Origin: a virus
Length of the DNA: 64,000 nt
Virus record (IMG/VR): IMGVR_UViG_3300009285_004753
Coordinates: 28,280-92,279 of that record
Direction: 5' to 3' (one strand)
How positions within the stretch are numbered: the first letter of the stretch is position 1; each line of letters begins with the position of its first letter. Position numbers and translations under genes: made by a program. The notes beneath the pieces were generated by a model. The model was not told the DNA's origin, did not search any database, and was given only the letters and a program-made list of their open reading frames with translations. Shown here in pieces: positions 14,017 to 57,054 of the stretch.

Positions 14017-15823
14017 TCAGATCGGATTTCACAGGTACGGCGCCGATTACCGCCCCCTTCGGGGGTAAGCGGTCCAAATGGTCCGAGATCTCGACCGTTG
14101 ATCGACGCAGGCTCTTGCCGCCTCCCTTGAACGACCGCATGAGGCCGTTAAGCAGGTTATCCCGCACGTCATCCCCCTCAACCAACGGAATCTCGTTACG
14201 AAGCGAACGGCGCTGTACCGAAGCTACCTGCGGCTCCGGCAGCGGCGGGGCCTCGGGTTCCGGCTGCGGTAAAGTCGGCGGCTCACCCTCCAACGGTGAC
14301 GTGGCACCGGGAGGCGGACCAAGCGGGACACCGGCACCCAAACCAGGCGGCATGCCTCCGACCGCACCACCAACAGTGCCCGGCTGAATAGGAGCGCAGT
14401 ACCGGTCGATGTCACTATCGGAGAACGACAGAAGCGAGCGCAGAATGTAGGCACGCCACTCTTCCATGTCGAAACCGAGATTCACGCCGAACGCCGTCAT
14501 CCGATCGCCGACATCCAACACGGTCTGCAACACCTCCAGCCGCTGCAAGAGTTCCAGCGGCGACGGCGGTACCATACATATCTTGAAACTCCTGGCAGAC
14601 GTCGGCAGCCCCAACAACGCCAAGTGGATCTGCGCCAGCCGCATCAACCCGGTAATGACAGCCCGCTGCAACCGAATAGCCAAGCGGGCAAACCGGATGG
14701 AACGGAACCCCAGCGCCCGGTTACCGTCGGCCTCTTCCCCGTACCCATACCACGACTTCTTCGCGTTCGCTGAAGCAAACAGTCGGTCCAGCGTCATATC
14801 CACGTCATACGCCGCCCAAATGTCGGGCTTACCCGGCACTACCTCGATCGCCGTCTGCGAGTCCTTCCAGGTCGGCCAGATCAAGTCGTCAGTCAATCCC
14901 AGCGGGTTGTACAACACATCGTATTCACCCGTAGCCGGGTTGCGGTACGACTGCCGCTTCATCTGGTTCTTCCATCGGTTCAGCTTGTTGAAAATCTCCT
15001 GCTCCGCTGAACCCGAACCAACGTCCACCTTGATATTGCGCCGGTCGAGGCTGTTCGTCATACGGTACGCCATCACAGTGTCCAGCGCGCATTTGAACTG
15101 CTTTGCCGGGACTCTGGTAGTCGCTAGGATGCTCTTCCCGTGAACCGCCCGCTCAATGATCGCTGTGCTCCCGGTCCCGGTGAAATACGTCAGATTCGTA
15201 CCCAACAGTCGGTAGTGAATGAAGTCCCACGGCTTGTACGCATCCTTCAAGTCATCCTGCGACCAAGCCTTGCCGCGTTGTGTCCGGTCGTAGTAGTAGC
15301 CGAGCAACGTCCCGTTATCGGATTCTGAGCGCTCCACATAGCCGGGGTCCACTGCCTCAACGGCATCGACCCCTTTACCCGCTGTTGCGTGCACCTTGTG
15401 GTAGAAATCACCCAGTTTCGCCACATCCCGCAGTATGGCGTACACCATCTCTTCCGCTTCAACCCGGAGCAACATGTCTTCCACACAAGACACGACGCCC
15501 TCGTTCGCTGACTCTACCCAGACAGCCCGGCCCCGCTCCATGTCCACCTGCGATGCCTCCTCGGCGTAAGAGTCGAGGATCGCCGACACTTCGGGGTAAG
15601 TGTCAAGCTCCTGGTACAGATCGTACTGAGCAACACGCTGCTGCGGTGTGTTGCCGTACACGGCGCGCATGTACCTGTCGGCGCCAGTTGAAAGCTGCAT
15701 GTCCGGCAGAACGATCGGCTCCTGCGCAGACGGCCTGACCGTCGTTGCCGTAAGCCGCGCCGACCGAGGAAGAAACGCCCTAGCAAGCGCCAGACGCCAC
15801 GCTGGAATCTTGGACTCGTTCAT
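14009..15823 (-). CDS. Portal protein (T4 gp20-like)
   Basis: YQELDTYPEVSAILDSYAEEA, KLGDFY, GKSIL, AYRMTNSLDRRNIKVDVG, DDLIWP, RFARLAIRLQR. Confidence 0.9.
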   Translation of the reverse strand: MNESKIPAWRLALARAFLPRSARLTATTVRPSAQEPIVLPDMQLSTGADRYMRAVYGNTPQQRVAQYDLYQELDTYPEVSAILDSYAEEASQVDMERGRAVWVESANEGVVSCVEDMLLRVEAEEMVYAILRDVAKLGDFYHKVHATAGKGVDAVEAVDPGYVERSESDNGTLLGYYYDRTQRGKAWSQDDLKDAYKPWDFIHYRLLGTNLTYFTGTGSTAIIERAVHGKSILATTRVPAKQFKCALDTVMAYRMTNSLDRRNIKVDVGSGSAEQEIFNKLNRWKNQMKRQSYRNPATGEYDVLYNPLGLTDDLIWPTWKDSQTAIEVVPGKPDIWAAYDVDMTLDRLFASANAKKSWYGYGEEADGNRALGFRSIRFARLAIRLQRAVITGLMRLAQIHLALLGLPTSARSFKICMVPPSPLELLQRLEVLQTVLDVGDRMTAFGVNLGFDMEEWRAYILRSLLSFSDSDIDRYCAPIQPGTVGGAVGGMPPGLGAGVPLGPPPGATSPLEGEPPTLPQPEPEAPPLPEPQVASVQRRSLRNEIPLVEGDDVRDNLLNGLMRSFKGGGKSLRRSTVEISDHLDRLPPKGAVIGAVPVKSDLNG

Positions 15824-18800
15824 GCCCGCACCGTATGCAGCCGGTTGACCGCCCGCACATCCAGCCGACGGTTCGATAGATCAAAGGCCACGCCCCCGGT
15901 AAGACCGAGAGCACGCAGCCCGAATGAATGCACACCAGGAGCGAGGTCGAGAAACACCGGCGGAAACACCAGCCACTGCGGCGCAGTAGCACCGTGCAGG
16001 TTGTGCTGCAACGCGCTGACAGCATGCCGGTGCCCGTCCACGGTCAGTTCCAGCGTCAGTTCTCCATCTGCCGCCGGAGCCGTGAGTGCTGCCCTTACTG
16101 CCGCCACCACCTCGTATGTTCCCGCCTCCGGCACAACGACGGACGTCCACGTATCGAGCACACGCGTCAGCGTAGTGGCGGTAAGCGCCTGTGCCGCTGT
16201 CGAAAACGTTCTGCCGCCGCCTACGGCCGCATGCCCCTGCACCGAACCGTCAGATATAGGGCACCACGTCGTGCCACACCCGGTTACGTCGTTACGATGA
16301 ACGAGTCTATCCGCCAACGGGCGGAATGTGGCACCGGGAGCACGAACATCAATCGCGCTGATTACCGTCGCCACTCCCGCACCGGTCTGCACGATCTTGA
16401 TCGTGTGCCACCCCCAGTTAGAGCGCGCGATAACCGTCTCGAACGCAAACGCGCTTGCCTGCCCGTCGATGTACGTGTCACACGTCCCCTTCGTTCCGCG
16501 GACGACAAAGTCGGTCCCGAAAAACGAGAACGTAACCGTACCCGTAGCGTCCGTCATCTGCAGCGCATGCCCGCCAGGAAGTACTGAAGAACTGATCATC
16601 GAGATGTTCGTGCCCGTCGCTCTGAAGTCGCGATACGGGTAATGCCGGTCCCACCCGCGACCGGGGTCAAGCGCCGTCGCAGCCAGATGCAGCAACTGCT
16701 CACCGGGCCGGTCCATAACACCGGCGATAACCTCGTCGGGCACGGCCGATTGAGCGTCGATCGATCTGACTGTAATGCCGGAAAGCATGAACACAGCATT
16801 GGCGCCGGCGGCGGCAACACTCGGCGAGATCTGAATGACATGGTATCCCATCGGCAAATGCTCACACACGCGCCAAGCACCAGCACCGGTTTCGGCGACC
16901 GAGTGTGACCCGATCGAATGCCCATCAATGTACACAGTAAACTCGAACGTTGCGCTGAACGGAATTGATGTCTCGTAAGGGACGTGCAGATCGAGCCCCG
17001 TACCATACCAACCGAACCGCAGCAACGGGAACGAGAGCACAGGATCATCGTACACCAGCACAACCAATTTCCCGGCAGCGTCCTCGGTCACAGCCGCCTG
17101 CCACCCGACGAAACATGTAGACCCGTCACCTGCCACGTAGAACATGTTGCTTTTGACATTGTTGGGCACGTTATCGACATCGTAAAACACGCCCCCATCC
17201 GCTGCCCCCATTGACAGCGCCGTTACCGGGTAGAACGTCTTGCGCTCGGGCGCCGATGGAACATCCCACAGCGACATCCAGGTCGAGCCGTAGAACCGGA
17301 CAACAGCACCGGCAGAAAGAAATCCGATGTTCTCGTCCGTCGTGATGGTATTCGCAGCGGGGTCGATAGCGATGATGTAGCGCAGAACACGTGAACCCCC
17401 GCTCTCCACCGTGATCATGTCCCCGAACTTGAAGCCCGCAATAACAGGATCGGGATTGACATTACTGATCGTCGGCGAAGCGACTGCCGTGTCTCCCGTC
17501 GCTTGTGTCTTATCCGGAACATCGTAATGATATGCTGTCACCGTGCCCTGCTTGTTGACCGTCCATACCGACGTGCCGCCCTTCCATGTCACCGCAGGTA
17601 ACGCCGCTGAATGCTTGGTGGCTGCGCTCCGCGTGACCTGTTTCCCGTCGATAAACACGTCGCCTTGTCCGACCAGCAGCCCCGAGCTTTGGTAGTCTTG
17701 CACGACCACATCGAAGCCGTACAACAGCACGGTCTCCGATGTATTCGTCCGCAAGATCCGCATCGTATGCACGCCTGTCGCCAACCACGCCGGATCTTCA
17801 TCGCCCACAGATGCCGCCGGGCTCATTACAGCCCGAGTGAACAGGCGGCACCGGAGCGCAGAGTGCGGCTCGACAGCGACATCTGTCGTCAAGTTCGTCT
17901 TCACCAACCGCCCGTCGATCCAGACCTGCCCGGTAACTGTACCGGCAGTAGTTCCTCGAATCAGAGGGACAGCACCGTTCCCGTAGAACGTAAACTCGGC
18001 CCAACACGAAGCCCCGCTGAGCAACTGAACCGTACCATCTGCCGCCGACCAGTCCACACGACCGCCGTAGCGAATGCGCTGATCGCGGGCATCCAACCAG
18101 ATCTGATCACCGCCACGCACATTCGGCGAGGCGTACAAATCCTGCGGCCCGTATTCGTTCACTCGATACGGCTCACTCAGCAGCACACGACTGATTCCTG
18201 TCTGGCAGAACACGTCGGCCAACGGCAGACTACGCGGGTTATTGTCGATGGTGAGCTTGCCGTGCGACGAACTGCTCGGTGCCGACGTGTCCAGCGTAAC
18301 ATTGTAGTCGAACGTAAGCATGTCACCAGCGGTCTTGCCGAGGATACGATGCGCTGTTCCGGCCGTGTCCCAGAACAGGTACTGTGTCGTGACACCGTCC
18401 GCTATCGGGAGATTGACGGCAACCCCGAAAGCCGCCTCCGACCACCGCAGCGTAAACGTCAACGCCGCGAGACCACCAACGGCGAACACCCGGTCTACCT
18501 GAACCTGCGTATCACCCGGTACGGCGATCACACGGTACACGCCGTTGTCACCGGGCGTACCTGCATCATTGACGATCAGTGTCGCCCCAACACGGACCAC
18601 GCCTGTGAAACCGCCGGCGCCCGACGTAAAGATATCTGTCGGCCCGACACCGGTTGCACCATCGTTCCGCGTGATCGGCGTCGGCCGCGTGTGTGTGAAT
18701 GCCGTCAACCCCGTGTTGCTGAAGTGCAGCGGACCAGAAACGACAGCGCCGTGCCACTGTGACAGGACGGGCACCGTCGTCACGTTCGCCGCGCCGTGCA

Positions 18801-21800
18801 AGTAGACCCGGTTCAACGCGTCATCGACGCCCATGACACGATGCCGGACACCAGCAGCGTCGATGAACGAACTGTCGGCCATAACACCGCTGAGATCCAC
18901 AGCGCCGACAAACTGAACGGTACCGATTACATCGCCGCCGGCGCCGGGCATACCGGCCCAGTTGAAGCCGACCATCGTCTCGTTACGAAACTGCGCCTGC
19001 TCCGTCTCGACCACGGCCACAGGATCAGCGGCGTAGTCACCGAGAGCGTCTACCGAGTACGCCTTAGCGCTATCGGCCAGTTTCTCGTAGGTCACACTGC
19101 CGTCGGGGGGCGGTGTCTGCCCCAGCTTGACCGTCTGCCCTGTCTCAAGCACGGTCCCGTCACACAAGTAGACAGATGTCCCAAACCGCAGCGCCACGAT
19201 CACTGTGTTATTCCCGTCAGCCAGCGGCGCGGTCTTGTGCACCACTGACGGCGCGACATCCACGGCACCCGCGCTTGTACGCTGCAACGTTACAACCATC
19301 CTATCGCCATCGGTCCCGAGCGTCTGGGGGGAGGAAGCAAGGGAGATATCATTCCAGCCTGCGGCCGCAAAAGGCAGGTCGAACCGGAGCGGGGCAGTCC
19401 AGGAAAGAGCACCCGTCGTAGCATTCCACGAAATATTTGCTGTCGAAACCAAGCGCAAGTTTCGGTCCTGGTTCGTCCGGCTGTCGTGCTCGTGCGCCAG
19501 CAGTACAGCGCCCGTAGTGCTGTTCGTCAGCGTACCTGTTACCCGGTACGAAGACACGATGACCTGTGAGCATCCAGCGACCAGCGTGAGCGTCTTACAA
19601 TCGACACGAGATACCGTCAGTCCGACGACAGCCGCTTCAACCGAGAGCAGGCAATCGTCAAGCTCAGCATGCCCGACATAGACACGACTTCCAGTCACAC
19701 TGACACTCGGCGTTACAGCAGCGGGATCAAACCCGAGGATCTGAAGCCGATTGACCGACATTCCGGTCCCGCCGAGACTGATAACGCCGGCAACGGTCGT
19801 GTCAAACACGATCCGATCAAACACGGAAAGCGAATCATTGCGCCCGATCGTCTGGCTGGCATTGCTGCGGATCTGGATGTCATATCTGTTATTGGCGCCG
19901 AACCCGAAGTCGCTGTCGAACCCGGCAAAAACGTCCCAATTGGCGACACTGTCGAGCACGGTAAACCCGAGGTCGCACTTCCGGTTCTGCTTCACGTACA
20001 CCCGGTTTGCCTGAACGAAATCAAGGCTTACGTCTTCACCGTGCCGCACCTCTACATAGTTGGCGACGGATGCATCACGAACGCGGACAGTCTTCTTCAG
20101 CACCCGCACACTGCCGGTATTGTTCGCCACCACGTATGTGTTCGGCAGGATCACGGACATCGACCAGTTACCCAGCACCGCGTACAGCCACCCCCTGAAC
20201 ATCGTTGCTGTTGCGGGATCGTACAGATCGACCGGGTCGTACTTCTTGAGCCTTGAGTAGGGCAGGCCGTTACCGATCTGCAACGCAGCGGCGATGTCGA
20301 TCTGGTAAAGCGTGTGCCCCGCCGGCAGATCAGGGGGTGCGGGAAGTGCAGCGGCAACCCAGGACGCAGCGGCGTGATCGCCGACGAATGAACGGCCGCT
20401 GCACACCAGGTTGTACGTCCCGTACAGGCTCACAGGGCCGCGGAGTTCTACACCCGACGGAAGGACCAAGTCCTCGCGCAACACAAAGTGCCCATTGGCT
20501 TCAACCGTGATCGGCGCCGTCGTACTGTCGTTGGTGAACACGTCTCGGATTGACAAGTACTCCGCATCAACGTAATCCATCGCTTCGTCAAGCGCCAAAG
20601 CGCCGGAGAACGTACCGCGGACGGCGCCGCGGCGGTCGAGCACCTTCACTGTCGGTTCGTGATCAGCATCCAGCTTGTGCCGCGTATGACAAACAATCGC
20701 GGCGTCGGTCACGTGCAGATGCCCGAGATCCACCACATCGCGGATATCGCGGTACTTCATGTCCAGGGACTGCAACGCTGTAATCACCGCACCGTCTGTC
20801 GGCACGACGGGAACGGTCGCAGCCAGTACTGCCGCCCCTGTGACGCTGACGATCTGGTACGGCTGCAACGGAAGCCGCCCGTCGTCCATCTGCGCCAACA
20901 CGACACGGTCGAACCTGTGATTACCAGCAGCACACAGCGCCGCCGAAATGAGGTTCGTCTGGTCTGCCTCAACCCTGATGTAGACGCCATCGCCGGTGAC
21001 TGCAACACCGTGCTGCACAGACACATCGGTAACCGCAGTACCATTTGCGAGCGACAGGCCCTCCAGTACGCCGCCCGCATCAGCGGCGACTGTCCTGGTG
21101 GGGGCGGCGAGCGCCCCGAGGTAATCGGGCTTGCGTACCAGGCACTGCGAGAATGTCACAGCGCCGGCCGGGACTTCGACGTAAGCGATGACGGTGTCTT
21201 TCACCGTCAGCGGCGGCAACCGGTACACCGTAAACGTCAACGCCGTCTGCCCGCCGGCCTTCCATGTGGTGTTGACGAGCAGCGTCGTATCATTCACCAC
21301 CTCTTCGACGGTGTACTCCCCGTTATCGCCGGGGGTACCCGTGTCATTGATGCGCAGAATATCGCCCCGCGCCACATTGACGAGGAACCCGCCCGCCAGA
21401 GACGTAAGCGTCCGCGTACCGACTGCCGATGTAGCGCCGTCTGCGGCCCCGGCCCACATCGTCGCCGCTAACCGAAAATACGAAGCGCTCGGCGGCGGCA
21501 CGGTAAGAGCGTAGGTGTAACTGGCAAAGAGCACGTCGATCCGGTACGTCCCACCGCCAACAGGCAAGTTGAACAGATTGTCCTGACAGGCATTCTCGCC
21601 GATCCATGCATGATCCGGGGGAAGGAAAACACCGAGTGCCTTGTACGCCACGAAGTTCAATGCAGCCAGTGAACCGACAGGCCAGTCACGGTTCACCGTG
21701 ATCTGCGTGTCCAGAGGAACGCCCGTCACGATATAGGCGCCGTTGTCTCCGTTCGATTGGTAGTCTTCGATGACGAGGATGTCGCCGACTGCAACAGCGG

Positions 21801-22047
21801 CACTGAACCCGCCGGCGACAGACGTAAGCGTGCGCGCCGCAGGCAGACCTGTTGCACCATCGGTGCCCGGCTTATTGGCTCTAGCGAGATCGGGATCGTG
21901 CTGAAACGCGCACCACATGCCTCCGGTAGAACCGGGCACGACGTTGAAGCCGCGCTGTACGCCGAGACGGAAAAGCCCCTTACGCGCTTCGTTCAGAAAC
22001 AGCGTCTGGTCATCTGCCTCGAAGTCGAAGTATCTCACCTGCGCCAT
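15820..22047 (-). CDS. Large tail fibre / receptor-binding protein (2075 aa)
   Basis: Modular G/T/V-rich protein with three ~65-aa beta-barrel modules, three F.GT..IDG..G.H.I.I carbohydrate-binding-like modules and DGSVTYEKLA; located after the baseplate genes. Confidence 0.75.
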   Translation of the reverse strand: MAQVRYFDFEADDQTLFLNEARKGLFRLGVQRGFNVVPGSTGGMWCAFQHDPDLARANKPGTDGATGLPAARTLTSVAGGFSAAVAVGDILVIEDYQSNGDNGAYIVTGVPLDTQITVNRDWPVGSLAALNFVAYKALGVFLPPDHAWIGENACQDNLFNLPVGGGTYRIDVLFASYTYALTVPPPSASYFRLAATMWAGAADGATSAVGTRTLTSLAGGFLVNVARGDILRINDTGTPGDNGEYTVEEVVNDTTLLVNTTWKAGGQTALTFTVYRLPPLTVKDTVIAYVEVPAGAVTFSQCLVRKPDYLGALAAPTRTVAADAGGVLEGLSLANGTAVTDVSVQHGVAVTGDGVYIRVEADQTNLISAALCAAGNHRFDRVVLAQMDDGRLPLQPYQIVSVTGAAVLAATVPVVPTDGAVITALQSLDMKYRDIRDVVDLGHLHVTDAAIVCHTRHKLDADHEPTVKVLDRRGAVRGTFSGALALDEAMDYVDAEYLSIRDVFTNDSTTAPITVEANGHFVLREDLVLPSGVELRGPVSLYGTYNLVCSGRSFVGDHAAASWVAAALPAPPDLPAGHTLYQIDIAAALQIGNGLPYSRLKKYDPVDLYDPATATMFRGWLYAVLGNWSMSVILPNTYVVANNTGSVRVLKKTVRVRDASVANYVEVRHGEDVSLDFVQANRVYVKQNRKCDLGFTVLDSVANWDVFAGFDSDFGFGANNRYDIQIRSNASQTIGRNDSLSVFDRIVFDTTVAGVISLGGTGMSVNRLQILGFDPAAVTPSVSVTGSRVYVGHAELDDCLLSVEAAVVGLTVSRVDCKTLTLVAGCSQVIVSSYRVTGTLTNSTTGAVLLAHEHDSRTNQDRNLRLVSTANISWNATTGALSWTAPLRFDLPFAAAGWNDISLASSPQTLGTDGDRMVVTLQRTSAGAVDVAPSVVHKTAPLADGNNTVIVALRFGTSVYLCDGTVLETGQTVKLGQTPPPDGSVTYEKLADSAKAYSVDALGDYAADPVAVVETEQAQFRNETMVGFNWAGMPGAGGDVIGTVQFVGAVDLSGVMADSSFIDAAGVRHRVMGVDDALNRVYLHGAANVTTVPVLSQWHGAVVSGPLHFSNTGLTAFTHTRPTPITRNDGATGVGPTDIFTSGAGGFTGVVRVGATLIVNDAGTPGDNGVYRVIAVPGDTQVQVDRVFAVGGLAALTFTLRWSEAAFGVAVNLPIADGVTTQYLFWDTAGTAHRILGKTAGDMLTFDYNVTLDTSAPSSSSHGKLTIDNNPRSLPLADVFCQTGISRVLLSEPYRVNEYGPQDLYASPNVRGGDQIWLDARDQRIRYGGRVDWSAADGTVQLLSGASCWAEFTFYGNGAVPLIRGTTAGTVTGQVWIDGRLVKTNLTTDVAVEPHSALRCRLFTRAVMSPAASVGDEDPAWLATGVHTMRILRTNTSETVLLYGFDVVVQDYQSSGLLVGQGDVFIDGKQVTRSAATKHSAALPAVTWKGGTSVWTVNKQGTVTAYHYDVPDKTQATGDTAVASPTISNVNPDPVIAGFKFGDMITVESGGSRVLRYIIAIDPAANTITTDENIGFLSAGAVVRFYGSTWMSLWDVPSAPERKTFYPVTALSMGAADGGVFYDVDNVPNNVKSNMFYVAGDGSTCFVGWQAAVTEDAAGKLVVLVYDDPVLSFPLLRFGWYGTGLDLHVPYETSIPFSATFEFTVYIDGHSIGSHSVAETGAGAWRVCEHLPMGYHVIQISPSVAAAGANAVFMLSGITVRSIDAQSAVPDEVIAGVMDRPGEQLLHLAATALDPGRGWDRHYPYRDFRATGTNISMISSSVLPGGHALQMTDATGTVTFSFFGTDFVVRGTKGTCDTYIDGQASAFAFETVIARSNWGWHTIKIVQTGAGVATVISAIDVRAPGATFRPLADRLVHRNDVTGCGTTWCPISDGSVQGHAAVGGGRTFSTAAQALTATTLTRVLDTWTSVVVPEAGTYEVVAAVRAALTAPAADGELTLELTVDGHRHAVSALQHNLHGATAPQWLVFPPVFLDLAPGVHSFGLRALGLTGGVAFDLSNRRLDVRAVNRLHTVRA

Positions 22048-43173: not shown

Positions 43174-43523
43174 GGTGTGAAGATCTCCCCCGTGGCTTTG
43201 TTCACATACAGCGTCTTGAAGCACCAGATCCGGTCTAGCTGCAGACTCACGGCAACGTCATCCAGCGGTAACTCCGCCAATCGAGACCGTACCTGGACTT
43301 CTGTGGCGTCCAAGTCCTTGCCGCTTTCGGTGATTACGAATTTCTCGTCGTCAGTCAACTGGATACGGAATATGTCCTGCGGTTGCATCCGACTTGCGGC
43401 GTGTGCTGCCGCTGATCTGTGCACACGGTCTGCTACCGCCTCGATGTCGGCAACCATCTCGCTCTGCAACTCGATGCGCCGGCGGATCACTTCACTCGGC
43501 GTCAGTGGTTCGTATACCCGCAC
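43170..43523 (-). CDS. Hypothetical protein
   Basis: 117 aa, coupled. Confidence 0.6.
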   Translation of the reverse strand: MRVYEPLTPSEVIRRRIELQSEMVADIEAVADRVHRSAAAHAASRMQPQDIFRIQLTDDEKFVITESGKDLDATEVQVRSRLAELPLDDVAVSLQLDRIWCFKTLYVNKATGEIFTP

Positions 43524-44275
43524 TACGCCCCCTGCACAGGTGTGACTTTCTGCTGATTCGGCGGCAGGTCTCCGCCGGTTGGAGCGGCGTCTGCGAGCAG
43601 CGCCTTACGAATGGAGTTTGCTACATCCTGCGGCGTCGCCAATCCGTCGAACTTCAGGCTCCGGTTTACCGACCCCAGAATCGGGTGACGGTAGTCCAGG
43701 TTGACATGCCCGACTGAGTTGCGGCGCTCTGCATCGTGCCCGTCGCTTACACCGATACTGAATGGAGCAGTGCAGCAGCAATACCCGTCGTTATTCGATG
43801 CGACAGCAACGGGATCGAGCCGCACGCTGAGAGAGACATCGGCCGGCTGCCCGGCGATTGACGCCGTAAGCGTGAGATGGCGGGATACGTCGCCGCTTGC
43901 CGGCCAGCACGGCGTCGGTTCCTCTTTCCCTGCGTGCTCCAAGGGTCCGATCTTGCCGAGTCCATCCAGTCCGGCAATCACGGCGTCAAGGAATGCCCGA
44001 GTCTGTCCGTACAACACCGCCGCCAAGCAACCGGGCACTTGGCGGTAATCCTGTGTCTTCACGACTTCGGGCTTGTGGATCGGGTACGCATCACCGACCC
44101 ATTCGACCAGTGTGCGTCGCCCATCCGACGGACGGATTTCATGCAGGTTCTTCGGCTGCTGGCCCTCGTCGAGTGTACGGTGACCGGGAGAGCGCTGTAC
44201 CAGCGAAAGCGCAGGATCGTCGGACGCAGACGAAAGCTGTGTCAGTTCACGAAATCTGTCAGAAGCATCCGTCAT
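43523..44275 (-). CDS. Putative internal head protein
   Basis: Leader MTDASDRFRELTQ and TLDEG site. Confidence 0.55.
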   Translation of the reverse strand: MTDASDRFRELTQLSSASDDPALSLVQRSPGHRTLDEGQQPKNLHEIRPSDGRRTLVEWVGDAYPIHKPEVVKTQDYRQVPGCLAAVLYGQTRAFLDAVIAGLDGLGKIGPLEHAGKEEPTPCWPASGDVSRHLTLTASIAGQPADVSLSVRLDPVAVASNNDGYCCCTAPFSIGVSDGHDAERRNSVGHVNLDYRHPILGSVNRSLKFDGLATPQDVANSIRKALLADAAPTGGDLPPNQQKVTPVQGA

Positions 44276-44958
44276 GTCGAAATCCTCCGCTTGTGCGTGA
44301 CTTCACTTGAACCGAGCCACCGCACATGAACGCCACTACCTGTGAAGAGATCGTCGGGTCTGATGTCGGTGATCTCCTGTTCCCGCCCTTCGTCGTCCAC
44401 GAACCTGTCGCCGACTTTGGGTGTGATGGAGTTATCCTCCAGCGTCTTTGCTGCGAATACCAGGATACCGTTTCGCGGACGGTCGTAACCGTATTTTGTG
44501 CAGACAACGGGGGACGGGTCCATGATCAACAGGAACGGGATCGCCGCTGTCGCGGTCCATGCAACCGAACCCGAAGCCGGATCACCGTACACGTCGTGGT
44601 AAATGACCTCGTAGGGCAACCCCGTCTTACCGCCGTAAGGCCAGTCACTGTCTACTTTTAGCGTAGTGACATTGACGATCTGCACCACCTTGTAATCGCC
44701 GTTGTCGAAATCATCTGTAACCCCGGCAATCCGGAGCAGAGAGTTCACCAGTACGGTTGTCGAGAAATCCTTTGTTGTGTCGGTGAACAGCCGGTTAGTC
44801 ACGACGGCACTGGTAGCGCCGACGGTTCCGCTGATAGCGGCGATCTGCGATTGCCGATACAAGACGCGGTTCGGCCGGTAAAGCTCACCGTATTCTCCGG
44901 CGCGTGCCTTCAGGTACGCTGCATCTTGCGCTGACTGGAATAGGTTCGACTGTGTCAT
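44272..44958 (-). CDS. Head closure/neck protein (gp14-like) with inserted beta-barrel module
   Basis: KYGYDRPRNGILVFAAKTLEDNSITPKVGDRF..EITD. Confidence 0.72.
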   Translation of the reverse strand: MTQSNLFQSAQDAAYLKARAGEYGELYRPNRVLYRQSQIAAISGTVGATSAVVTNRLFTDTTKDFSTTVLVNSLLRIAGVTDDFDNGDYKVVQIVNVTTLKVDSDWPYGGKTGLPYEVIYHDVYGDPASGSVAWTATAAIPFLLIMDPSPVVCTKYGYDRPRNGILVFAAKTLEDNSITPKVGDRFVDDEGREQEITDIRPDDLFTGSGVHVRWLGSSEVTHKRRIST

Positions 44959-45047
44959 GCGGCGGGGTTCTCGGCGCGCTTCGGGCTCTTGAACTTTGAG
45001 TCCCGAGTTTCAGTCAACTCTAGGAACCGGGAGAGCGCAGCATCCAT
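44955..45047 (-). CDS. Unannotated 30-aa micro-protein MDAALSRFLELTETRDSKFKSPKRAENPAA (targeting leader plus short peptide)
   Basis: GGGAG RBS 7 nt upstream, stop overlaps the next ATG (ATGA), leader matches the shared motif. Confidence 0.72.
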   Translation of the reverse strand: MDAALSRFLELTETRDSKFKSPKRAENPAA

Positions 45048-45069
45048 CAGTTCACTCCCTTCGTGCTTG

Positions 45070-46500
45070 TCATGCCCCCGCCCGCGGCGTAGCGCCGGCT
45101 TTCTTCAGTGCCAGCCTGAGTGCCTGTGCCGCCCGCTTCCGGTTGGTCTCCGTGCTGATAGCGTCGGTCGCCGGCCGGTCAAGCAGCCACAAGGCAAACT
45201 CCATTGTCTTGCGGTCACTGACCGCGTCGGTCGTCGCGGGGTCGGTTGCTTCGTGCAGCCGAGTGAGCAGGCGGCTTTTCGGTCCCGTAGTCTTCGCTTC
45301 ACCGATAGAACTCACGGTAGACTCGTCCCCCCCTGTTTCCGCTATGCGATCGGTACCGATCCGTGCTGCTTTCTGGTAGTGAAGCTCGTCAGGATCGCCG
45401 TCGTCGTCCAGGCCGACTTCGTCATCGCCTACGAATACGGTCTGCTTGCTGAACTTGTCCTGGAGTTCAGGATCTTCGACGTAACCCTTCAGGTACGTGT
45501 ACTCGCTCACGTTGAACCCGTCGAAGCCGCGCTCGACCACGGTTCCGTACTCGCTGTCCTTGCCGCCCGGACCGTACCACGTTGCCGTATCTCTGACAAA
45601 CTCGTCAGGCTGCCGGAACGTGTCCTGCTTCGCTGCTTCGGCAAGGAACTGCCGATAGAGCGGGAGCAGGCCCTTGACCGATTCCGACATCATGTCGTCC
45701 ACGGCGGCGTCGGTGAACGATTCGTTCGTCCGCTTCCTGGACTCTGAAATCTTCATCGACTTGATCGCCTCGGGGACGGCCCCCTTCAAACCGAAATCGG
45801 ACGGGTTGATCCCGCCGACCTGCACTTCCCGCAGGAATGTGTCCGCCATCTGCTTTGCCGCAGCTTGCCGCGTCGGCTTGGGGAACTGAGCGGACCACGA
45901 GTGCCCCGGTGTTCCGTGGATGCTGGCGTACTTCTTGGCCCCGGCGTCTGCCAGGTAGAGCCACAAAAGCGGCGCCTTCGTGTGGTCATACTCACCCTTC
46001 ACGATCTTGCGGAGCAGGTTCTGGTGTATCGGTGTCGTCCGCTGCCGGTACAGGTCGCCGTCGTTGTCGATGAAGAGAACGAGTTCATTCGCGCTGACCG
46101 TGTCCTGACCGGAACCCGGAGCATCCCGATCGAAGCGACCCTCGTTCTTCTGCCCCAGCCCCGCGGCGCGTTCCAGTCGGGTCGCCAGCCGCTGAGCGGA
46201 CGACTCAGAATTCTTCCGCAGGTTCGCTATTGCTGCGATCAGCGTGTCCCGGTTTACCGCATGCCCGCCGTACAGGAACGATCCTGCGGCGTAGATCGGA
46301 TCACTGGCACTGGAGTGCCAGTCCATCATCGCCAGCCCGAGCCGTTTCGCTTCAGCCGGTTCGATGGTGATCAGCGGTTCGTCGCCAGTGTCTTCATTGA
46401 CTACGCCGGGACCGGCAGCGGGCTTACTCGTGCTCGGCCTCGACCCGGTCAGGATGGACTTGAACGCGTTGCCTGCGTCAATCTGTTCGTGCACTTTCAT
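45070..46500 (-). CDS. Putative multi-domain internal head polyprotein
   Basis: Domains separated by VNE/KNE/ISE/TNE/IGE/LHE sites; includes an ELVLFIDNDGDLYRQ..YD...GAKKY domain and an acidic C-terminal domain. Confidence 0.6.
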   Translation of the reverse strand: MKVHEQIDAGNAFKSILTGSRPSTSKPAAGPGVVNEDTGDEPLITIEPAEAKRLGLAMMDWHSSASDPIYAAGSFLYGGHAVNRDTLIAAIANLRKNSESSAQRLATRLERAAGLGQKNEGRFDRDAPGSGQDTVSANELVLFIDNDGDLYRQRTTPIHQNLLRKIVKGEYDHTKAPLLWLYLADAGAKKYASIHGTPGHSWSAQFPKPTRQAAAKQMADTFLREVQVGGINPSDFGLKGAVPEAIKSMKISESRKRTNESFTDAAVDDMMSESVKGLLPLYRQFLAEAAKQDTFRQPDEFVRDTATWYGPGGKDSEYGTVVERGFDGFNVSEYTYLKGYVEDPELQDKFSKQTVFVGDDEVGLDDDGDPDELHYQKAARIGTDRIAETGGDESTVSSIGEAKTTGPKSRLLTRLHEATDPATTDAVSDRKTMEFALWLLDRPATDAISTETNRKRAAQALRLALKKAGATPRAGA

Positions 46501-46793
46501 CTCTTGCCTCCAACTCTCACAACATACTCAATAAGGTAGTCCAGTCCTTCAAGCACTTCGGGTCTGGTGTAGAATCGTACATCTTCCTGAAGATGCCCAC
46601 GTGCAGCGAGTAGGGCCGCCGCAACATCGCTGGTTGATGCAAGCGGTCGGCGGAACAACGACTTCGACGCCAGCACCCCCTCGGCAATATCCGCATCGAA
46701 TGTATCAGTGAGCGCTTCGTGTAGTACCTGTTCCGGTCGGCCCCCGTCAACCACCGCCTGTACCAGGTCTCGAACGAGGTCTTCATCCATCAT
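46497..46793 (-). CDS. Small head-associated protein
   Basis: 98 aa; LVQAVVDGGRPEQVLHE leader. Confidence 0.6.
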   Translation of the reverse strand: MMDEDLVRDLVQAVVDGGRPEQVLHEALTDTFDADIAEGVLASKSLFRRPLASTSDVAAALLAARGHLQEDVRFYTRPEVLEGLDYLIEYVVRVGGKR

Positions 46794-47494
46794 GCCCTCA
46801 GCGGCACGCCGATCTCGCCGATCCTGTTACGCAGTTCCTGCTCCAACAGCGGCAACTCGTCCTTTGCTTCCTGAAGCAGGGCGGGACCGTCCATTTGAAA
46901 CTCGTGCTCGGCCCCGCGGACGACGGCGTACTTCGACCGCTGTCGCCCGAGCGGCATCTTCGCCGTCGCCAGCGTGTACCGCAGAAACCAGTCCTCGTCA
47001 TCAGGCAGTATATCCGTCACAGCCCGATCTTCCAGATACGTGTAGACGCCGGTCGTACTCTCAGTAACGTTGGATGCGATCCACAGCGTGTGTGTGTCAC
47101 GCTCCCAATCCCACTCCAGATTTGCCGACAGTACCTGTGCCGCTAGAGCCAAGTGCGCTCGGTCCGTAATGAACTCGTCGAGTCTGAGCGGCTGTCGAAC
47201 CATCTGATACGGGTTGAAGATGTCAACCGACGCAAGAACCGGACGCGCACGCGGCTTCAGTTGGAAGTCTACCAGACCTTTACCGTATGTCGTCAACACG
47301 TATTTCTGTACTCCGGCTGTCACGGCGATCTGTGCTTCCTTACGAAACGGGCGATACCGATTGTACAGCCGCAATGCTTGATTCTGGCACTCAGTGATCA
47401 TGTTCGGTGTGAGTTCGACCACGACACCGGACGTGGTGTCCTGGCCGAGCATCCGCTTGACGTAATCACTTACGATAGTTGCTGAGAGTGCCAT
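46790..47494 (-). CDS. Neck/adaptor protein (gp13-like)
   Basis: YVKRMLG..VVVELT, WFLRYTLATAK..LGRQRSKY, DGPALLQEAKDEL. Confidence 0.85.
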   Translation of the reverse strand: MALSATIVSDYVKRMLGQDTTSGVVVELTPNMITECQNQALRLYNRYRPFRKEAQIAVTAGVQKYVLTTYGKGLVDFQLKPRARPVLASVDIFNPYQMVRQPLRLDEFITDRAHLALAAQVLSANLEWDWERDTHTLWIASNVTESTTGVYTYLEDRAVTDILPDDEDWFLRYTLATAKMPLGRQRSKYAVVRGAEHEFQMDGPALLQEAKDELPLLEQELRNRIGEIGVPLRA

Positions 47495-47578: not shown

Positions 47579-48994
47579 TTACACCGGGAGCGAAGTACAG
47601 GTGCCAGTGCAGTAGAACCCGCCGTCCACGACCTTCTTGCCATACCTGCTCCAGATGCCGAAGCGGGTGAGGAAGTCGGTCAGGGTGACGGGCGGCACGT
47701 GCTCGAACATCTGGTACGGGGAGAAGATGTACCCGGTATCCCACATTTCCTCGCCCTTGTGCCCCATGCAGTACGTCGCGCGGGCCATGTACGAGTTGAT
47801 GTAGACTTCCCAGGTTCCGTTCAGCGTTCCGATGTGCTGGATGCCGCGGCCGGAGATCTTCTTGCCGTTGCCCTTGAAACCAGGCAAGGTCTCGATGACG
47901 TTGCAGACACCGACGCCGGCGACAATCCAGTCACCGCGTGCACGCTGCGTGGTCTCGTAAATCTTGTTGCTAGCACCGACCAGCGTGTCCACGATCGACA
48001 GCTTGTGCTCGGTGTACGACACTCCGGCGGGGGGGGTGGCACTCCACGCCACCTGCTGGTTGGTAGCAATCCTGATGCAGTCGTTGATGACCTTCTGGTC
48101 GATCTCGAACTTGGCCTGGCTCACCTGCGCTGACATCAGTTCGACATCGGCCGACTTGCCGTGCACAACCCTGAAGTCCATCGCCGATTCAAGCGACAAC
48201 TTGCTGATCAGCTTGTCAGTGACTGCGGTCACCGGCGAACCGGTGATCACGAAGTCAAGCTCGGCCTGAAGGCTATTGCCTTCGTTGTCATAGTCGTATG
48301 TCACGACGACGGCAGCGCCCGCGGTGGGAGCGGCAGTCCAGGTGATCGAGTACGCCCCGGTCGAGTAGTTGATCGTGCCCGTGCCGGAACCGGAGAGCAC
48401 ACCAGCGCCGTTGTCGGTCACGATCTGCGTATCGCCGTCGGAGAACAGCATGGTACCGGAGTGAACCGGAACCCATGACAGCGTACCGGCGAATACCTGC
48501 GTGGCACCGTCACCGGTACCGATCGACTCGCCTTCGATGGTCTTCGACCCGAAGTTCGTGCTCGGGTTGGTCAGGATGTCCTGCCCCGCCTTCGCTGCGC
48601 CCTTCGTGACGCCGTACAGGAACTTCATAAAGAAGACCATCGACGTCGGGCCGTTCATCGCCTGGATGGAGACCAGGTCGTGAGCGATCAGGTTCGGGAA
48701 CACCGCAGCGATGACCGGGTAGGACCAGCGGTCGAACGAGCCGACGTAGGAGAGACGGGTCGTCTCTTCCAGACTCCGGTAGTACACGTTCTGGTTGTGG
48801 AGGAGGAGGGCGGTCTGCTGCCGCTTCTTCTCGTCTTTGATCCCCTCCAGCAACTCGCCCATCGTCCACTTCATCGTGTTGCCGTCGGGCATCTTGCCCT
48901 CGTACAGGCAACGGTCCTTGCGGCTGACCAGCGACTCGCAGAGATTCTGGTTCTCCGTTACGCCGCGTTTGTACTCTTCGGAAAGGATGATCAT
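47579..48994 (-). CDS. Major capsid protein (T4 gp23-like)
   Basis: LIAHDLVSIQAMNGPTSMVFFMKFLY, ESAMDFRVVHG..ELM..FEIDQKVI, RGDWIV, GYIFSPY, RYG. Confidence 0.95.
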   Translation of the reverse strand: MIILSEEYKRGVTENQNLCESLVSRKDRCLYEGKMPDGNTMKWTMGELLEGIKDEKKRQQTALLLHNQNVYYRSLEETTRLSYVGSFDRWSYPVIAAVFPNLIAHDLVSIQAMNGPTSMVFFMKFLYGVTKGAAKAGQDILTNPSTNFGSKTIEGESIGTGDGATQVFAGTLSWVPVHSGTMLFSDGDTQIVTDNGAGVLSGSGTGTINYSTGAYSITWTAAPTAGAAVVVTYDYDNEGNSLQAELDFVITGSPVTAVTDKLISKLSLESAMDFRVVHGKSADVELMSAQVSQAKFEIDQKVINDCIRIATNQQVAWSATPPAGVSYTEHKLSIVDTLVGASNKIYETTQRARGDWIVAGVGVCNVIETLPGFKGNGKKISGRGIQHIGTLNGTWEVYINSYMARATYCMGHKGEEMWDTGYIFSPYQMFEHVPPVTLTDFLTRFGIWSRYGKKVVDGGFYCTGTCTSLPV

Positions 48995-49022: not shown

Positions 49023-51380
49023 TCACCGCTGGACCTTGCTCCGGAAGATCGACATGATGTCTGCTGTTGCGGACACAGGCGAATTCAGGACGGGAAGTCC
49101 AGTATCCACACCCCGGTTCTGTCCGGGGAGAGGTTCACGTGAAGTAGAGTCGGCGGCTTCGTTCACATTCCGCCTGTTCCGCTTGATCTGCTGCATCGCC
49201 CGCTGCTTGGCTCCGCCGACACGGCGCGTCCGCTTGGCTTCGTCCTTCGACGACTCGTCGTCGGTTCCCCAGAAGCCGTAATCACTGCCGTCGCCCTCGG
49301 AGGCGCCGAAGTAGTGACCGGCGGGGGCGTGCTCGTCCAGGGCATCGAAGAGTTCAGCGAGGATGTCGGACGCAAGGTCCGACTGCCACCAGTCATCGTC
49401 TGCGCCCAGGTCGGACAGCGGTGTCTTCGCTGCATCCTTGATTTCCTGCTGGACCTGTTTCGCTTTGTCGGCGTCGAGATCCTCCAGTTCGTCCAGGAAG
49501 CGGGGAAGCAGATCCTGAAGCCGCATGGTGCCCCAGGAGATCGAACCGGGCGTCCCTGTCTTCTTTCCCGTGTCAGCAGCGGGAGGCGTGCTGGATTCCG
49601 GCGGCGGTGTCTCTTCGGCCTCGTTGATCTTCGCCTTCACGGCGGAACGTGCCGCTTCGTTGGTTGTGACGGACGCGAGCAAGCTGTCCAGGTCCGACTG
49701 CGGTACCGTCTTGGCCTGCGCACCGCCGAGCCAGCGGTTGATGTGCCGCGTAGTCGTGCTCGACCATGCCTTGTCGGTACGGAAGTTTTCGCCGCCCTTT
49801 GAATACGCTACGGGCGTCCTGTACGAGAACAGGATACGCGTGCCTCCGACGACGACCTCGTTCACATTCGGTCCGATCGGCGTCAGGCCCACACCCTCAG
49901 CGATCTGCTGCGGTTTGCGGTCTTCCTTCAACATGGAGTACGCCGGCGGTTTGCCCTTGGCATAAGCAGCACGAGCGATCAGCTTTCCGGTGCCATCCTT
50001 GTACTCCAGGACCGCCGTGTCGGGGTCAGTCGTATTCGGCTCGCCCTTCAGTCCTGCGACAGCACGAGAGAATTCCTCCTGTGTCGTCGCTTTCAGCGCG
50101 GGTACCTGTTCGTGAATCGGCTTCGCTGCGGAAACGGCAGCACCGCCCGTCTCACTCAGCGTCTTCCACACGCGGCGGACGTCCGACTTCGTCTTGCACT
50201 CACCGAGCAGGCGGCGCGCCATCGGGGCGAACGCGGGCTTCGTGTGCCGCAGCACAGCACCGGCAACACGCGCCGTTTCTCTCTGGTTGAGCGTGTCAAG
50301 CAGCGCTTCGAGAATGCGGCCCTCGGCCTTGGCGCGAGATTCGTACAGTTTGTACCGCTGAAGCATCTGAAGAGAACTGCCCAGCAGCCGTTCTGCCGAT
50401 TCAAGCCGCTTCGCCAGCATGACATTATCCTGTGCCGATTCTGCAACAGGGCGAATTGCTGTTCCAGTTGCATTGCAATGCGGGCACGTCAACGGCCCGC
50501 CTTCAGGCAGCGATCTGCCGTCGCGCACGAACTCTTTGTGACACGATTCACACTTGTACTTCTTCGACGCCGCCTGTGACATCACAAAAGCGATGTCCTT
50601 TTTCATGCTGTCCGTGGCTTCGGTAAGTGCGGTGATCGCTGTCATTACTCGTTCGATTTCTGCGTGCGGCATAGCGGCCCCTTCCCCATTGGCTCTCTGC
50701 GAGAGCTTGGCGAGAGCATGTTCTACCAATACGGAGTCTCGGATCTCCGCCCCTAACGACGCACATTTTTCAATCACCTTAGTGTCAGTGGCCTCGTTTA
50801 TCAGTTTCAGCAGCGGTTCGCGCACACGCGTTCGTTCCTCGGCCTCTTTCGCTTCGGAGAGCACACGTGGGTACGCTCCGGGGGTGGACGGCTCCAAAAC
50901 GAAGTCCCAGGTAGACAGCGCGTAGTCTGCTTCGTTCACGACTTCAAGCCCGTTCTCGACAATAGTCGATCCTTTACCTCGGGATGACGTTCCGAGACCG
51001 GCCTTCGCGCGGTGCAGCGTAGCGGCAACGTGCCCGTGCGGTGTGTCGAGAATGTCATACTGGCAGTACACCGACCCGTCAGGTTCCAGCCGCGCTTCGG
51101 TAACGATATGCGACACGTCTTCGGGTTTCGACGCGTCTTCATCTTTCGGGTGTCCCAACTTCCCGAACATCCGACGTTCGGCGATCTTTGTCTTAATCGC
51201 GGGATCGTTCAGCGTTTTCTCCCACAGGGACCGCTTGTACACCCTGTTGTTCTCGTTCTTCGTATCGGACGTCTGCGAGCGCCCACCGACGCGCATGATG
51301 ATGCCGGGCGGCAGTGATCTGCGGTCTTCGGTCATCACCGTGTAGCTCGGATAGTAAGTATCGACGATAGGCTGTAGCAT
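49023..51380 (-). CDS. Prohead protease (T4 gp21-like) fused to scaffold and extra cargo domains
   Basis: QTSDTKNENNRVY, FGKLGHP, VSHIV, ILDTPHG, GTSSRGKGS, WDFVLEPSTPGAYP, followed by ~600 further residues. Confidence 0.9.
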   Translation of the reverse strand: MLQPIVDTYYPSYTVMTEDRRSLPPGIIMRVGGRSQTSDTKNENNRVYKRSLWEKTLNDPAIKTKIAERRMFGKLGHPKDEDASKPEDVSHIVTEARLEPDGSVYCQYDILDTPHGHVAATLHRAKAGLGTSSRGKGSTIVENGLEVVNEADYALSTWDFVLEPSTPGAYPRVLSEAKEAEERTRVREPLLKLINEATDTKVIEKCASLGAEIRDSVLVEHALAKLSQRANGEGAAMPHAEIERVMTAITALTEATDSMKKDIAFVMSQAASKKYKCESCHKEFVRDGRSLPEGGPLTCPHCNATGTAIRPVAESAQDNVMLAKRLESAERLLGSSLQMLQRYKLYESRAKAEGRILEALLDTLNQRETARVAGAVLRHTKPAFAPMARRLLGECKTKSDVRRVWKTLSETGGAAVSAAKPIHEQVPALKATTQEEFSRAVAGLKGEPNTTDPDTAVLEYKDGTGKLIARAAYAKGKPPAYSMLKEDRKPQQIAEGVGLTPIGPNVNEVVVGGTRILFSYRTPVAYSKGGENFRTDKAWSSTTTRHINRWLGGAQAKTVPQSDLDSLLASVTTNEAARSAVKAKINEAEETPPPESSTPPAADTGKKTGTPGSISWGTMRLQDLLPRFLDELEDLDADKAKQVQQEIKDAAKTPLSDLGADDDWWQSDLASDILAELFDALDEHAPAGHYFGASEGDGSDYGFWGTDDESSKDEAKRTRRVGGAKQRAMQQIKRNRRNVNEAADSTSREPLPGQNRGVDTGLPVLNSPVSATADIMSIFRSKVQR

Positions 51381-55458: not shown

Positions 55459-56168
55459 GCTTGCGGCGCCACAGGGGCTATGACAGGGGCGTTTACCGCC
55501 GGCGGCAGAGCAGTAGGAGCGCCGGCGGAATCAGACGGGACCGGCTTACGCTGCTCTGCGTTACTGAGTTCAGCTTCTACTTCGCTCCAAGCGCGCTCAT
55601 AGTCGGAAGGCATCACCGCCCCCCCCCTACCAAGTCGATACTCCGTTGCACGGCGGAACATGTCACCGATTTCACTCACATCCAAACCGTATTGCCTTTT
55701 CGCCGCTGCAATCCGCGTTTTGAACTTCGCCCGCTGAATTCTGTCATTGATCCAGAGCAAACCCGCCCCGAGTCCGACACCGGTACCCAACGCAACGAGC
55801 GGTGCCGCCGTCAGCCCGGTAGCGAGTGCAACAGCACCGGCAGCACCCAAGCCCCCGGCGACACCTGCTGCGGTTACCTCATTGAGACCAGCTACCAGCG
55901 CGTCAGCGTCTGCTCCCTGCAACACGCGTTCAATCAGTCCCTGCGCCGTCCGCTGGTACCGCGTTTCCGCCGACTCTTCTTTCTTCAGCCCAAGCCGCTG
56001 CTGGACGATACCAGTCACGTAACTCCATGCCTGGTCGTCGAACTCGCTCTCTTTCTTGCCGAACTTCTCGGCAGCAGCCATCTTGGCTTCCTTCCAGTAC
56101 TGTTCGACGTTCTTGACCGGCTGCCCGGACTTGCGTGCGAGCGCGTACGACATTCCTGTAGGCATCAT
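55455..56168 (-). CDS. Putative head core protein with hydrophobic Gly/Ala segment
   Basis: MP..LARKSG..VEQYWKEAK..WSYVTGIV N-terminus recurrent in large phages; KEES and LNE sites. Confidence 0.55.
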   Translation of the reverse strand: MMPTGMSYALARKSGQPVKNVEQYWKEAKMAAAEKFGKKESEFDDQAWSYVTGIVQQRLGLKKEESAETRYQRTAQGLIERVLQGADADALVAGLNEVTAAGVAGGLGAAGAVALATGLTAAPLVALGTGVGLGAGLLWINDRIQRAKFKTRIAAAKRQYGLDVSEIGDMFRRATEYRLGRGGAVMPSDYERAWSEVEAELSNAEQRKPVPSDSAGAPTALPPAVNAPVIAPVAPQA

Positions 56169-56338
56169 CCACCTCCTGATTTTTTCACGATCCGGTCAAC
56201 GAACGACTGTCCGCTGAAATACACCGACACAATCCCGCCGAGCGTGTAGAGCGCAGCATCGGAAGCGTCAAACATCGACATCCCGGCAACAGCGGTGATC
56301 GCTACAACAGCGACGAGGAATTTGCGGAGTCCGATCAT
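56165..56338 (-). CDS. Unannotated 57-aa two-TM holin-like protein
   Basis: MIGLRKFLVAVVAITAVAGMSMFDASDAALYTLGGIVSVYFSGQSFVDRIVKKSGGG; ATGA overlaps at both ends. Confidence 0.7.
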   Translation of the reverse strand: MIGLRKFLVAVVAITAVAGMSMFDASDAALYTLGGIVSVYFSGQSFVDRIVKKSGGG

Positions 56339-57054
56339 ACCGTACCTCGATCCGCGGGCTTCCAGTCTACCCGCTGCGCTATCTCGAAGAAATTGGACCC
56401 ATCGCGCTTGAACTGCGGCGCCTTTGACCAGTCAACCAACCACACTTCAGTTGGGCGCACCGTACCCTCGTTAGCAACGTGCATACCGAGGTCCAACAGT
56501 TCACGCTTCTGTGTCTGCGACATCTTGCGAAGCATCTGTTTACCCGCCACTGCAAAATACGAGTACTCCCCGTCCTCTGCTTTCTCCCATGCGCGCGGTG
56601 AAACCACCTTCCGGCCCCAGTTGTAGACCCAGTCAGGTACTTGGGTCTGATCCATCTTATACCCGAACTGCGCTTTCATTTCAGGCGTAACCGTCCGGGT
56701 GTGGATCAGTTCGCCGACTTGGTCTTCGTCAGGCTGGATGTCAGTGAGTTCGGTACCGGGCACCACGAACACGTAACCTCGCCCGGTGTAAGCAGTGTTC
56801 GGCACACCGGCATAGTTACCGCCTAACGCGTATATCAGAGCGTACCCGATATCGGGCGTCAAGTACGTCCGACCGACAACAGGGTCCAGTCGGCCGCGCC
56901 CCTGTACCGCTGCTCCGGGACGAATCTCTCCCGCCTGCATGATGGCAGCGCCCCGCTCCTTCGTCGTACCGTGGTAATAGGAACGAGAGAGTTCAGACGT
57001 CGTCGCAGCAGCAAACTCTACCAACGACCGGAAGCGGGTAAGCGCCGTATCCAT
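56335..57054 (-). CDS. ADP-ribosyltransferase-fold protein (H-Y type) with targeting leader
   Basis: MDTALTRFRSLVE leader; YYHGT..AAIMQAGEIRP..TYLTPDIGYALIYA..GYVFVV; true start ATG 57054 (TGATG overlap). Confidence 0.75.
   Translation of the reverse strand: MDTALTRFRSLVEFAAATTSELSRSYYHGTTKERGAAIMQAGEIRPGAAVQGRGRLDPVVGRTYLTPDIGYALIYALGGNYAGVPNTAYTGRGYVFVVPGTELTDIQPDEDQVGELIHTRTVTPEMKAQFGYKMDQTQVPDWVYNWGRKVVSPRAWEKAEDGEYSYFAVAGKQMLRKMSQTQKRELLDLGMHVANEGTVRPTEVWLVDWSKAPQFKRDGSNFFEIAQRVDWKPADRGTV

Follow-up and report, generated by a model that had tools for sequence, protein, structure and literature searches.

A leader-bearing 30-codon open reading frame that may couple to a neck-position gene in an uncultured T4-like phage

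In the head module of an uncultured T4-like phage, a 30-codon open reading frame (hereafter, the mini-ORF) opens with the N-terminal leader family of its genome, and its stop codon overlaps the start codon of the 228-aa structural gene downstream (the neck gene). Our preferred reading, to which we give about an even chance, is that the mini-ORF belongs to the leader-bearing cargo family as a stump or minimal member specific to this lineage, is probably translated, and now couples to the neck gene. Here, we describe the mini-ORF and its leader, and then focus on the supply of ribosomes to the neck gene and on the alternatives that the evidence leaves in play.

Source record and head module

The window (the whole stretch of DNA analyzed, 64,000 nucleotides) comprises bases 28280-92279 of a 104-kb IMG/VR record with an estimated completeness of 51%. 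The record derives from groundwater and soil metagenomes. All genes of the mini-ORF region lie on the minus strand, and downstream of the gp13-like adaptor the order is 98-aa gene, 476-aa gene, mini-ORF, and 228-aa gene (Table 1). The preliminary description had presumed a T4-type setting for head cargo; indeed, the phage encodes both components of the setting in which T4-type CTS cargo occurs, a gp23-type major capsid protein and an S77 protease. The latter is the N-terminal domain of a 785-aa protein, which scores 45.6 bits against PF03420 Peptidase_S77 (cut-off 27) and matches T4 gp21 (PDB 5JBL) with an E value of 3e-7. This protein is presumed to be the enzyme that removes the leaders.

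Table 1. Features of the mini-ORF region and of the leader family, in window coordinates unless another contig is named.
Feature	Position	Strand	Leader	Remarks
613-aa gene	G000:C1 about 94141	-	MSPPVETSAFRSLIERRS...	1.9 kb past window end
Internal start in 1567-aa gene	start 60437		MDATDVKTRFKQLVE	
135-aa gene	start 58936		MDSATRIFMRLVE	
492-aa gene	start 58532		MTDEAVTRFTGLAE	
239-aa gene	56335..57054	-	MDTALTRFRSLVE	"ART gene" of the preliminary description
624-aa gene	start 54664		MNERNTFRSLAE	
467-aa gene	start 52793		MTALSTFQSLVE	
785-aa protein	49023..51380	-		N-terminal domain, T4 gp21-family prohead protease (phrog_207, 6e-30)
Major capsid protein	47579-48994	-		T4 gp23-like (PF07068, E 8e-50)
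gp13-like adaptor	46790-47494	-		profile matches including PF26809
476-aa mosaic protein	45070..46500	-		upstream of mini-ORF; stop 9 nt before Shine-Dalgarno
Shine-Dalgarno AGGGAG of mini-ORF	45055..45060	-		7 nt before ATG
Mini-ORF	44955-45047 (start 45047)	-	MDAALSRFLELTE	
Leader of mini-ORF, codons 1-13	45009..45047	-	MDAALSRFLELTE	genome's N-terminal leader family; predicted protease site after E13
Tail of mini-ORF, codons 14-30	44958..45008	-		TRDSKFKSPKRAENPAA; net charge +3; without known homologue
ATGA overlap	44958..44955	-		mini-ORF TGA 44957-44955 and 228-aa gene ATG 44958-44956
228-aa structural gene (neck gene)	44272-44958	-		gp14 position; conserved position in relatives
250-aa gene	43523..44275	-	MTDASDRFRELTQ	

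Anatomy and coding signal of the mini-ORF

The mini-ORF begins with ATG 45047-45045, ends with TGA 44957-44955, and has a product of 30 aa, the leader MDAALSRFLELTE followed by the tail TRDSKFKSPKRAENPAA. Reading 5' to 3', the TGA of the 476-aa gene (45072-45070) is followed by 9 nt, the Shine-Dalgarno sequence (SD) AGGGAG, 7 nt, the ATG at 45047, 29 codons, and the TGA. The duplex of this SD with the anti-SD is worth -7.9 kcal/mol, similar to that of the capsid gene (-8.0). Upstream of the ATG, the frame is open for 19 codons only and offers no earlier start, and several metagenome gene callers also predict the same 30-aa gene. The start, the ribosome binding site, and the stop overlapping the neck-gene ATG, all of which had been picked out in the preliminary description, are thus borne out on reading the sequence. 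Because the SD, the ATG, and the full leader are intact, the mini-ORF is probably translated. In the gap region, no promoter-like sites were seen on either strand, no terminator-like sites were seen on the coding strand, and the promoter motif GYGGTATA is not present; the predicted RNA fold of the gap is not significant (z 0.25).

We scored the mini-ORF by log-likelihood with codon frequencies taken from 27 long genes. Its score falls between the 23rd and 44th percentile of true in-frame windows, the range reflecting the background model; among stop-free windows, only 0.9% of those out of frame and 10% of those in antisense score as high. The 17-codon tail alone shows the same coding-like behavior. 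The GC content of codon positions 1, 2, and 3 is 0.57, 0.50, and 0.73, compared with 0.62, 0.46, and 0.71 in the genes. This coding-like usage suggests that the DNA is coding in this frame, now or recently, and it is compatible with both a living gene and a young stump.

The leader family

Every candidate start of the 104-kb record was scored for leader likeness. The leader occurs on the coding strand at at least nine starts, the mini-ORF included, and at least eight other head-module genes carry it (Table 1). The mini-ORF thereby shares a propeptide-type stretch of about 10-19 residues with otherwise unrelated proteins of one phage. The 613-aa gene with this leader lies past the window end, and the cargo set therefore continues beyond the window. 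A leader motif defined post hoc gave five matches in the six frames of the 104 kb (codon shuffles, n = 20: 0-1), and all five are on the coding strand and at most 6 residues from a start Met.

Against a leave-one-out profile of six other leaders, with the mini-ORF excluded, the mini-ORF scores 17.3 (background -0.6, sd 3.6; z about 5) and ranks about 10th among 6,162 starts. The starts that outscore it belong to leader genes only, except for one inside the 624-aa gene that is a probable internal false match. Together with the leader scans, this score supports the premise shared by the earlier interpretations, that the start and its copy of a targeting-type leader are both genuine. The comparison drawn in the preliminary description was with the 239-aa gene, whose start is 12,007 nt away and which has no Pfam or PHROG match at E<=0.01. 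Eight of the 13 leader residues are identical (M, D, A, L, R, F, L, and E; BLOSUM62 cross-score 33), so the match is beyond chance and keeps the key positions, but "nearly identical" was too strong a term for it. At the DNA level, the two leaders are about 70% identical by our own count, with many of the differences synonymous. That the mini-ORF leader differs from its paralogues mostly synonymously points to an old copy and no fresh duplication.

In T4, gp21 cleaves after L/I-x-E (PMC9026906). The leaders of this genome end in L-x-E, in keeping with that rule; that of the 250-aa gene, MTDASDRFRELTQ, ends in Q in place of E. In the mini-ORF, residues 11-13 are L-T-E and so conform to the L/I-x-E propeptide end. 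In both this phage and its relatives, the N-terminal region of the capsid protein likewise contains conserved L-x-E sites. Given the gp23-like capsid protein and the gp21-family (S77) protease, an L-x-E leader is plausible as a capsid-targeting and cleavage tag, and we infer that the mini-ORF product would be cleaved after E13.

Two further observations concern the distribution of the leader. The 250-aa gene has orthologues in two relatives (L003:6603-7073 and L008:6724-7461), and its leader is closer to the family of its own genome than to the longer leaders of these orthologues, MRKDEGFLDDFRKFARQTRVE and MKTFDVRKFASDYRKTLSEVTE, which suggests that leaders are homogenized within one genome. 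In viral contigs, the exact leader core of the mini-ORF has 0 matches, while a general degenerate DNA pattern for the leader has three, against about three expected by chance on our own estimate. Two of these are 14-codon junk; the third belongs to a 294-aa ORF at L013:8317-8355 (+) (IMGVR_UViG_3300047447_000208, 70% GC) that starts with MDPALTSFTKLTE and fits the leader pattern. It may represent distant use of the same tag, or the match may be fortuitous.

Might the mini-ORF itself be a chance frame, i.e., 30 open codons in GC-rich intergenic DNA with a fortuitous likeness to the leader? By our own calculation on base composition (59% GC), about one frame in three would remain open over 30 codons, so that the length of the mini-ORF is unremarkable. 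Against this, a leave-one-out z of about 5 and a rank of about 10 in 6,162, the confinement of the motif to coding-strand starts, and the coding-like codon usage make a chance origin hardly credible.

Ribosome supply to the neck gene

The 228-aa gene sits after the gp13-like gene and upstream of a gp15-like gene, the latter seen in the relative L008. Profile searches gave it no family match, so the label "neck" is a positional one. Residues about 40-130 of its product match repeated domains in very large proteins (1,000-2,075 aa), and one such match, P0015, has the same length as the phage's own 2075-aa ORF at 15820-22047 and may be the same protein. The middle of the 228-aa protein looks like a shared module of beta-sandwich type.

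The neck gene lacks its own SD: the region upstream of its ATG is worth -3.0 kcal/mol, compared with -7.9 for the mini-ORF and with -7.3, -5.5, -8.4, and -10.2 for the neck-gene SDs of four relatives. Neck-protein identity and the distance from the upstream stop to the neck start are 57% and 9 nt in L003, 47% and 3 nt in L008, 44% and 9 nt in L009/L014, and 37% and 1 nt in L010. The mini-ORF is absent from all four of these relatives, which are those with a readable context, and there is no room for one; instead, each has a recognizable SD directly before the neck start. The stop-SD-start layout of the relatives is retained in our phage, where it opens the mini-ORF, and the neck ATG comes 89 nt further on.

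The junction between the two frames has the features of translational coupling: an upstream stop that overlaps the downstream start (ATGA), a downstream gene without an SD, and an upstream ORF with one. Elsewhere in the operon, genes that overlap their predecessor generally have weak SDs. A 57-aa hydrophobic ORF (MIGLRKFLVAVVAITAVAG..., 56165-56338, minus strand) lies between the 239-aa leader gene and a 237-aa gene and is probably a small membrane protein within the cargo array; with ATGA overlaps at both ends, it bridges its two neighbors. The weak SDs at overlaps and this doubly overlapping ORF suggest that chained termination-reinitiation is the normal grammar of the operon. Since the neck gene lacks an SD and starts within the mini-ORF stop, the role of the mini-ORF is most likely ribosome delivery. 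This coupling role, which we consider likely, did not figure in the preliminary description and is added here. Two qualifications apply: ATGA reinitiation has no strict need for such an upstream ORF, and the neck gene might be initiated weakly without the help of an SD.

A mini-ORF that delivers ribosomes differs from inert recent debris, i.e., the 5' remnant of a cargo gene that has no useful translation, next to a neck gene that initiates alone. The mini-ORF is lineage-specific and borders a mosaic region, and a single clonal population holds all known copies, so it could be very young. We nonetheless regard inert debris as unlikely, as the mini-ORF SD matches that of the capsid gene in strength and the neck gene lacks one, an essential and conserved structural gene requires a source of ribosomes, and the frame is open precisely to the ATGA overlap.

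The same junction invites a different suggestion, that the leader and the 17 residues form an N-terminal extension of the neck protein, joined to it by a programmed frameshift or separated from it by an assembly error. The two frames are one base apart and overlap at the ATGA, and the 17 codons before the neck ATG are open in the neck frame. An assembly error sits poorly with the identical sequence in independent assemblies and runs from six studies. A programmed frameshift finds no slippery heptamer at the junction and no significant RNA structure (z 0.25), and the neck proteins of the relatives start at the aligned ATG and are leaderless. We therefore consider an extended neck protein very improbable.

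Relatives and population copies

The 228-aa protein is found as an exact copy on many contigs, as one 57% homologue, and as further distant full-length homologues. The preliminary description had proposed conservation of the open frame in related phages as a check, and none of the four relatives has it; as the relatives are distant, this absence speaks to lineage specificity only. Additional searches did not extend the set: protein and DNA searches of the "phages" database with the neck gene and the 4-kb region gave no match, scans of viral contigs, whether with the neck protein or with an alignment of two sequences, yielded no relatives, and a metagenome scan with a four-sequence alignment returned an already-known contig only.

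Within the population, the exact-sequence cluster of the 30-mer consists of one sequence on 13 contigs, and zero differences were seen among near-identical contigs and contigs of four DNA runs (80% likeness). With all copies identical and no intermediate relatives, selection on the open frame is not measurable from them.

The relative L014, the only one with more upstream sequence, allows a comparison of the cargo region. In the stretch read (L014:1-5403), the protease is 841 aa long, and it directly neighbors the homologue of the 237-aa gene; the window has three genes at this place (265, 624, and 467 aa), two of which bear leaders (624 and 467 aa).

Mosaic junction and origin of the mini-ORF

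The gene that precedes the mini-ORF encodes a mosaic protein. A conserved module of about 120 aa (motif ELxLFIDNDGDLYRQ...KIVKGxYDHTKAPLLW...) occupies residues 133-251 of the 476-aa protein, residues 350-464 of its counterpart in L003 (L003:4502-5914), and residues about 30-160 of that in L008 (L008:4687-5997); it thus lies mid-protein in our phage, C-terminally in L003, and close to the N-terminus in L008. The stretch at residues about 97-130 of the 476-aa protein can be aligned with the N-terminal leader region of its L008 counterpart, and a former N-terminus is thus apparently now internal. The C-terminal 225 residues (252-476) have no counterpart. As this C-terminal stretch is lineage-specific, the mini-ORF lies at the edge of a mosaic region, at what we take to be a recombination-prone junction.

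The best fit to these observations is the proposal, raised as one of two options in the preliminary description, that the mini-ORF is what remains of a lost cargo gene: 4/4 relatives with readable context lack the ORF, which stands at a mosaic junction. A parent gene with the same N-terminus was not found, though, so the origin as a stump is a scenario only. Under this scenario, a leader-bearing cargo gene would formerly have stood between the 476-aa and neck genes, or would have been inserted there already truncated, and most of it would have been lost, whether by an in-frame deletion or through the truncated insertion. The remaining 30 codons would be held in frame to the ATGA, with the SD-less neck gene dependent on their ribosomes, which would pass from the mini-ORF to the neck gene by termination-reinitiation. 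The need for ribosome delivery would then keep the short frame open, irrespective of any function of the peptide. If made, the peptide should be directed by its leader to the prohead core and cut there by the S77 protease after L-T-E, which would yield a basic 17-mer.

The 17-residue tail

The other option in the preliminary description was a basic 17-mer released inside the head, for which it had drawn on analogy; this proposal gained no further support from the analysis. We searched for the 17-mer in the genome and its relatives and found no paralogue in the former and no homologue in the latter, and the tail segment KFKSPKRAE is encoded by no viral contig. Local blastn of the gap against the genome for paralogous DNA returned only matches of at most 17 nt. 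A conserved mature protein, as is characteristic of T4-type cargo, is not seen here: the mature part would be 17 residues that have no homologue and are absent in relatives. Small cleavage fragments mostly leave the T4 head, and it is thus doubtful that a 1.9-kDa peptide would stay behind unless its +3 charge kept it bound to DNA.

Could the mini-ORF nevertheless be a functional micro-cargo gene, whose leader loads the prohead and whose product is cut at LTE|T to give a 17-mer that acts as a DNA counter-ion or condenser, or that is injected? The SD, the ATG, and the full-consensus leader are intact, codon usage is coding-like in the 17-codon tail too, and the +3 net charge could retain the 17-mer on DNA; T4 has internal proteins that are basic and DNA-binding (PMC9026906). 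A perfect leader and a good SD are, moreover, also to be expected under selection for the peptide itself. Weighing on the other side, the ORF is missing from 4/4 relatives, the 17-mer lacks a homologue, small cleavage fragments mostly exit the T4 head (PMC9026906), and there is no population variation that could reveal constraint. We see functional micro-cargo as a minority possibility, and it is improbable that the mini-ORF is a true minimal cargo gene in the strict sense, with a 17-residue peptide that is loaded, cut by the S77 protease, and either kept on the packaged DNA or injected. If it were, no smaller dedicated head-cargo gene would be known, and nature would have supplied proof that the leader by itself is the address.

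Significance and comparison with known systems

If the preferred reading, a translated stump that couples to the neck gene, is right, it shows turnover in a cargo family whose members can shrink to near the address tag alone, with shrunken members surviving because the chained translation of the operon needs an open frame. The mini-ORF would, in addition, offer a handy minimal substrate, ready-made in nature, for asking whether the leader signals cleavage and targeting. On its own, it adds little to the leader-cargo systems of this genome and of T4.

The resemblance to T4 CTS cargo lies in a short N-terminal propeptide common to unrelated proteins, its L-x-E end, a gp23-like capsid, and an S77 protease. 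The leader here is, however, unrelated in sequence to that of T4, which is MKTYQEFIAE. T4 internal proteins are about 8-20 kDa, whereas the putative cargo of the mini-ORF is only 17 residues, and the mini-ORF is located between gp13-like and neck-position genes. In T4, 10 leader residues are enough to load foreign proteins (PMC3012670, PMC9026906).

As in the ip loci of T-even phages, the leader here marks a family with members that are gained, lost, and exchanged. The ip loci reportedly hold variable genes that share only the leader. In families of this type, in which conservation is limited to the leader, truncated or minimal members are to be expected as by-products. The differences are that no exchange partner or parent gene was found in our case and that the locus lies outside the main cargo arrays. 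Published work describes the T-even ip loci as polymorphic, with the leader alone conserved (PMC3012670, PMC12373910).

The junction with the neck gene also has the look of a coupled operon, with an SD upstream, an SD-less gene downstream, and a 4-nt overlap, and many junctions of this operon are alike in that respect. Overlapping stop and start codons (ATGA, TGATG) give translational coupling in phage and bacterial operons. What sets the present case apart is that the upstream partner is a 30-codon ORF with a targeting leader, on which the neck gene is predicted to depend.

Finally, internal peptides II and VII of T4 are acidic fragments of prohead core proteins that are retained in the head. 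Like them, the 17-mer would be a short peptide made in the head by the prohead protease, as predicted here from the L-T-E site. The T4 peptides are acidic and come from larger core proteins, whereas the peptide of the mini-ORF would be basic and would have a 30-aa precursor of its own.
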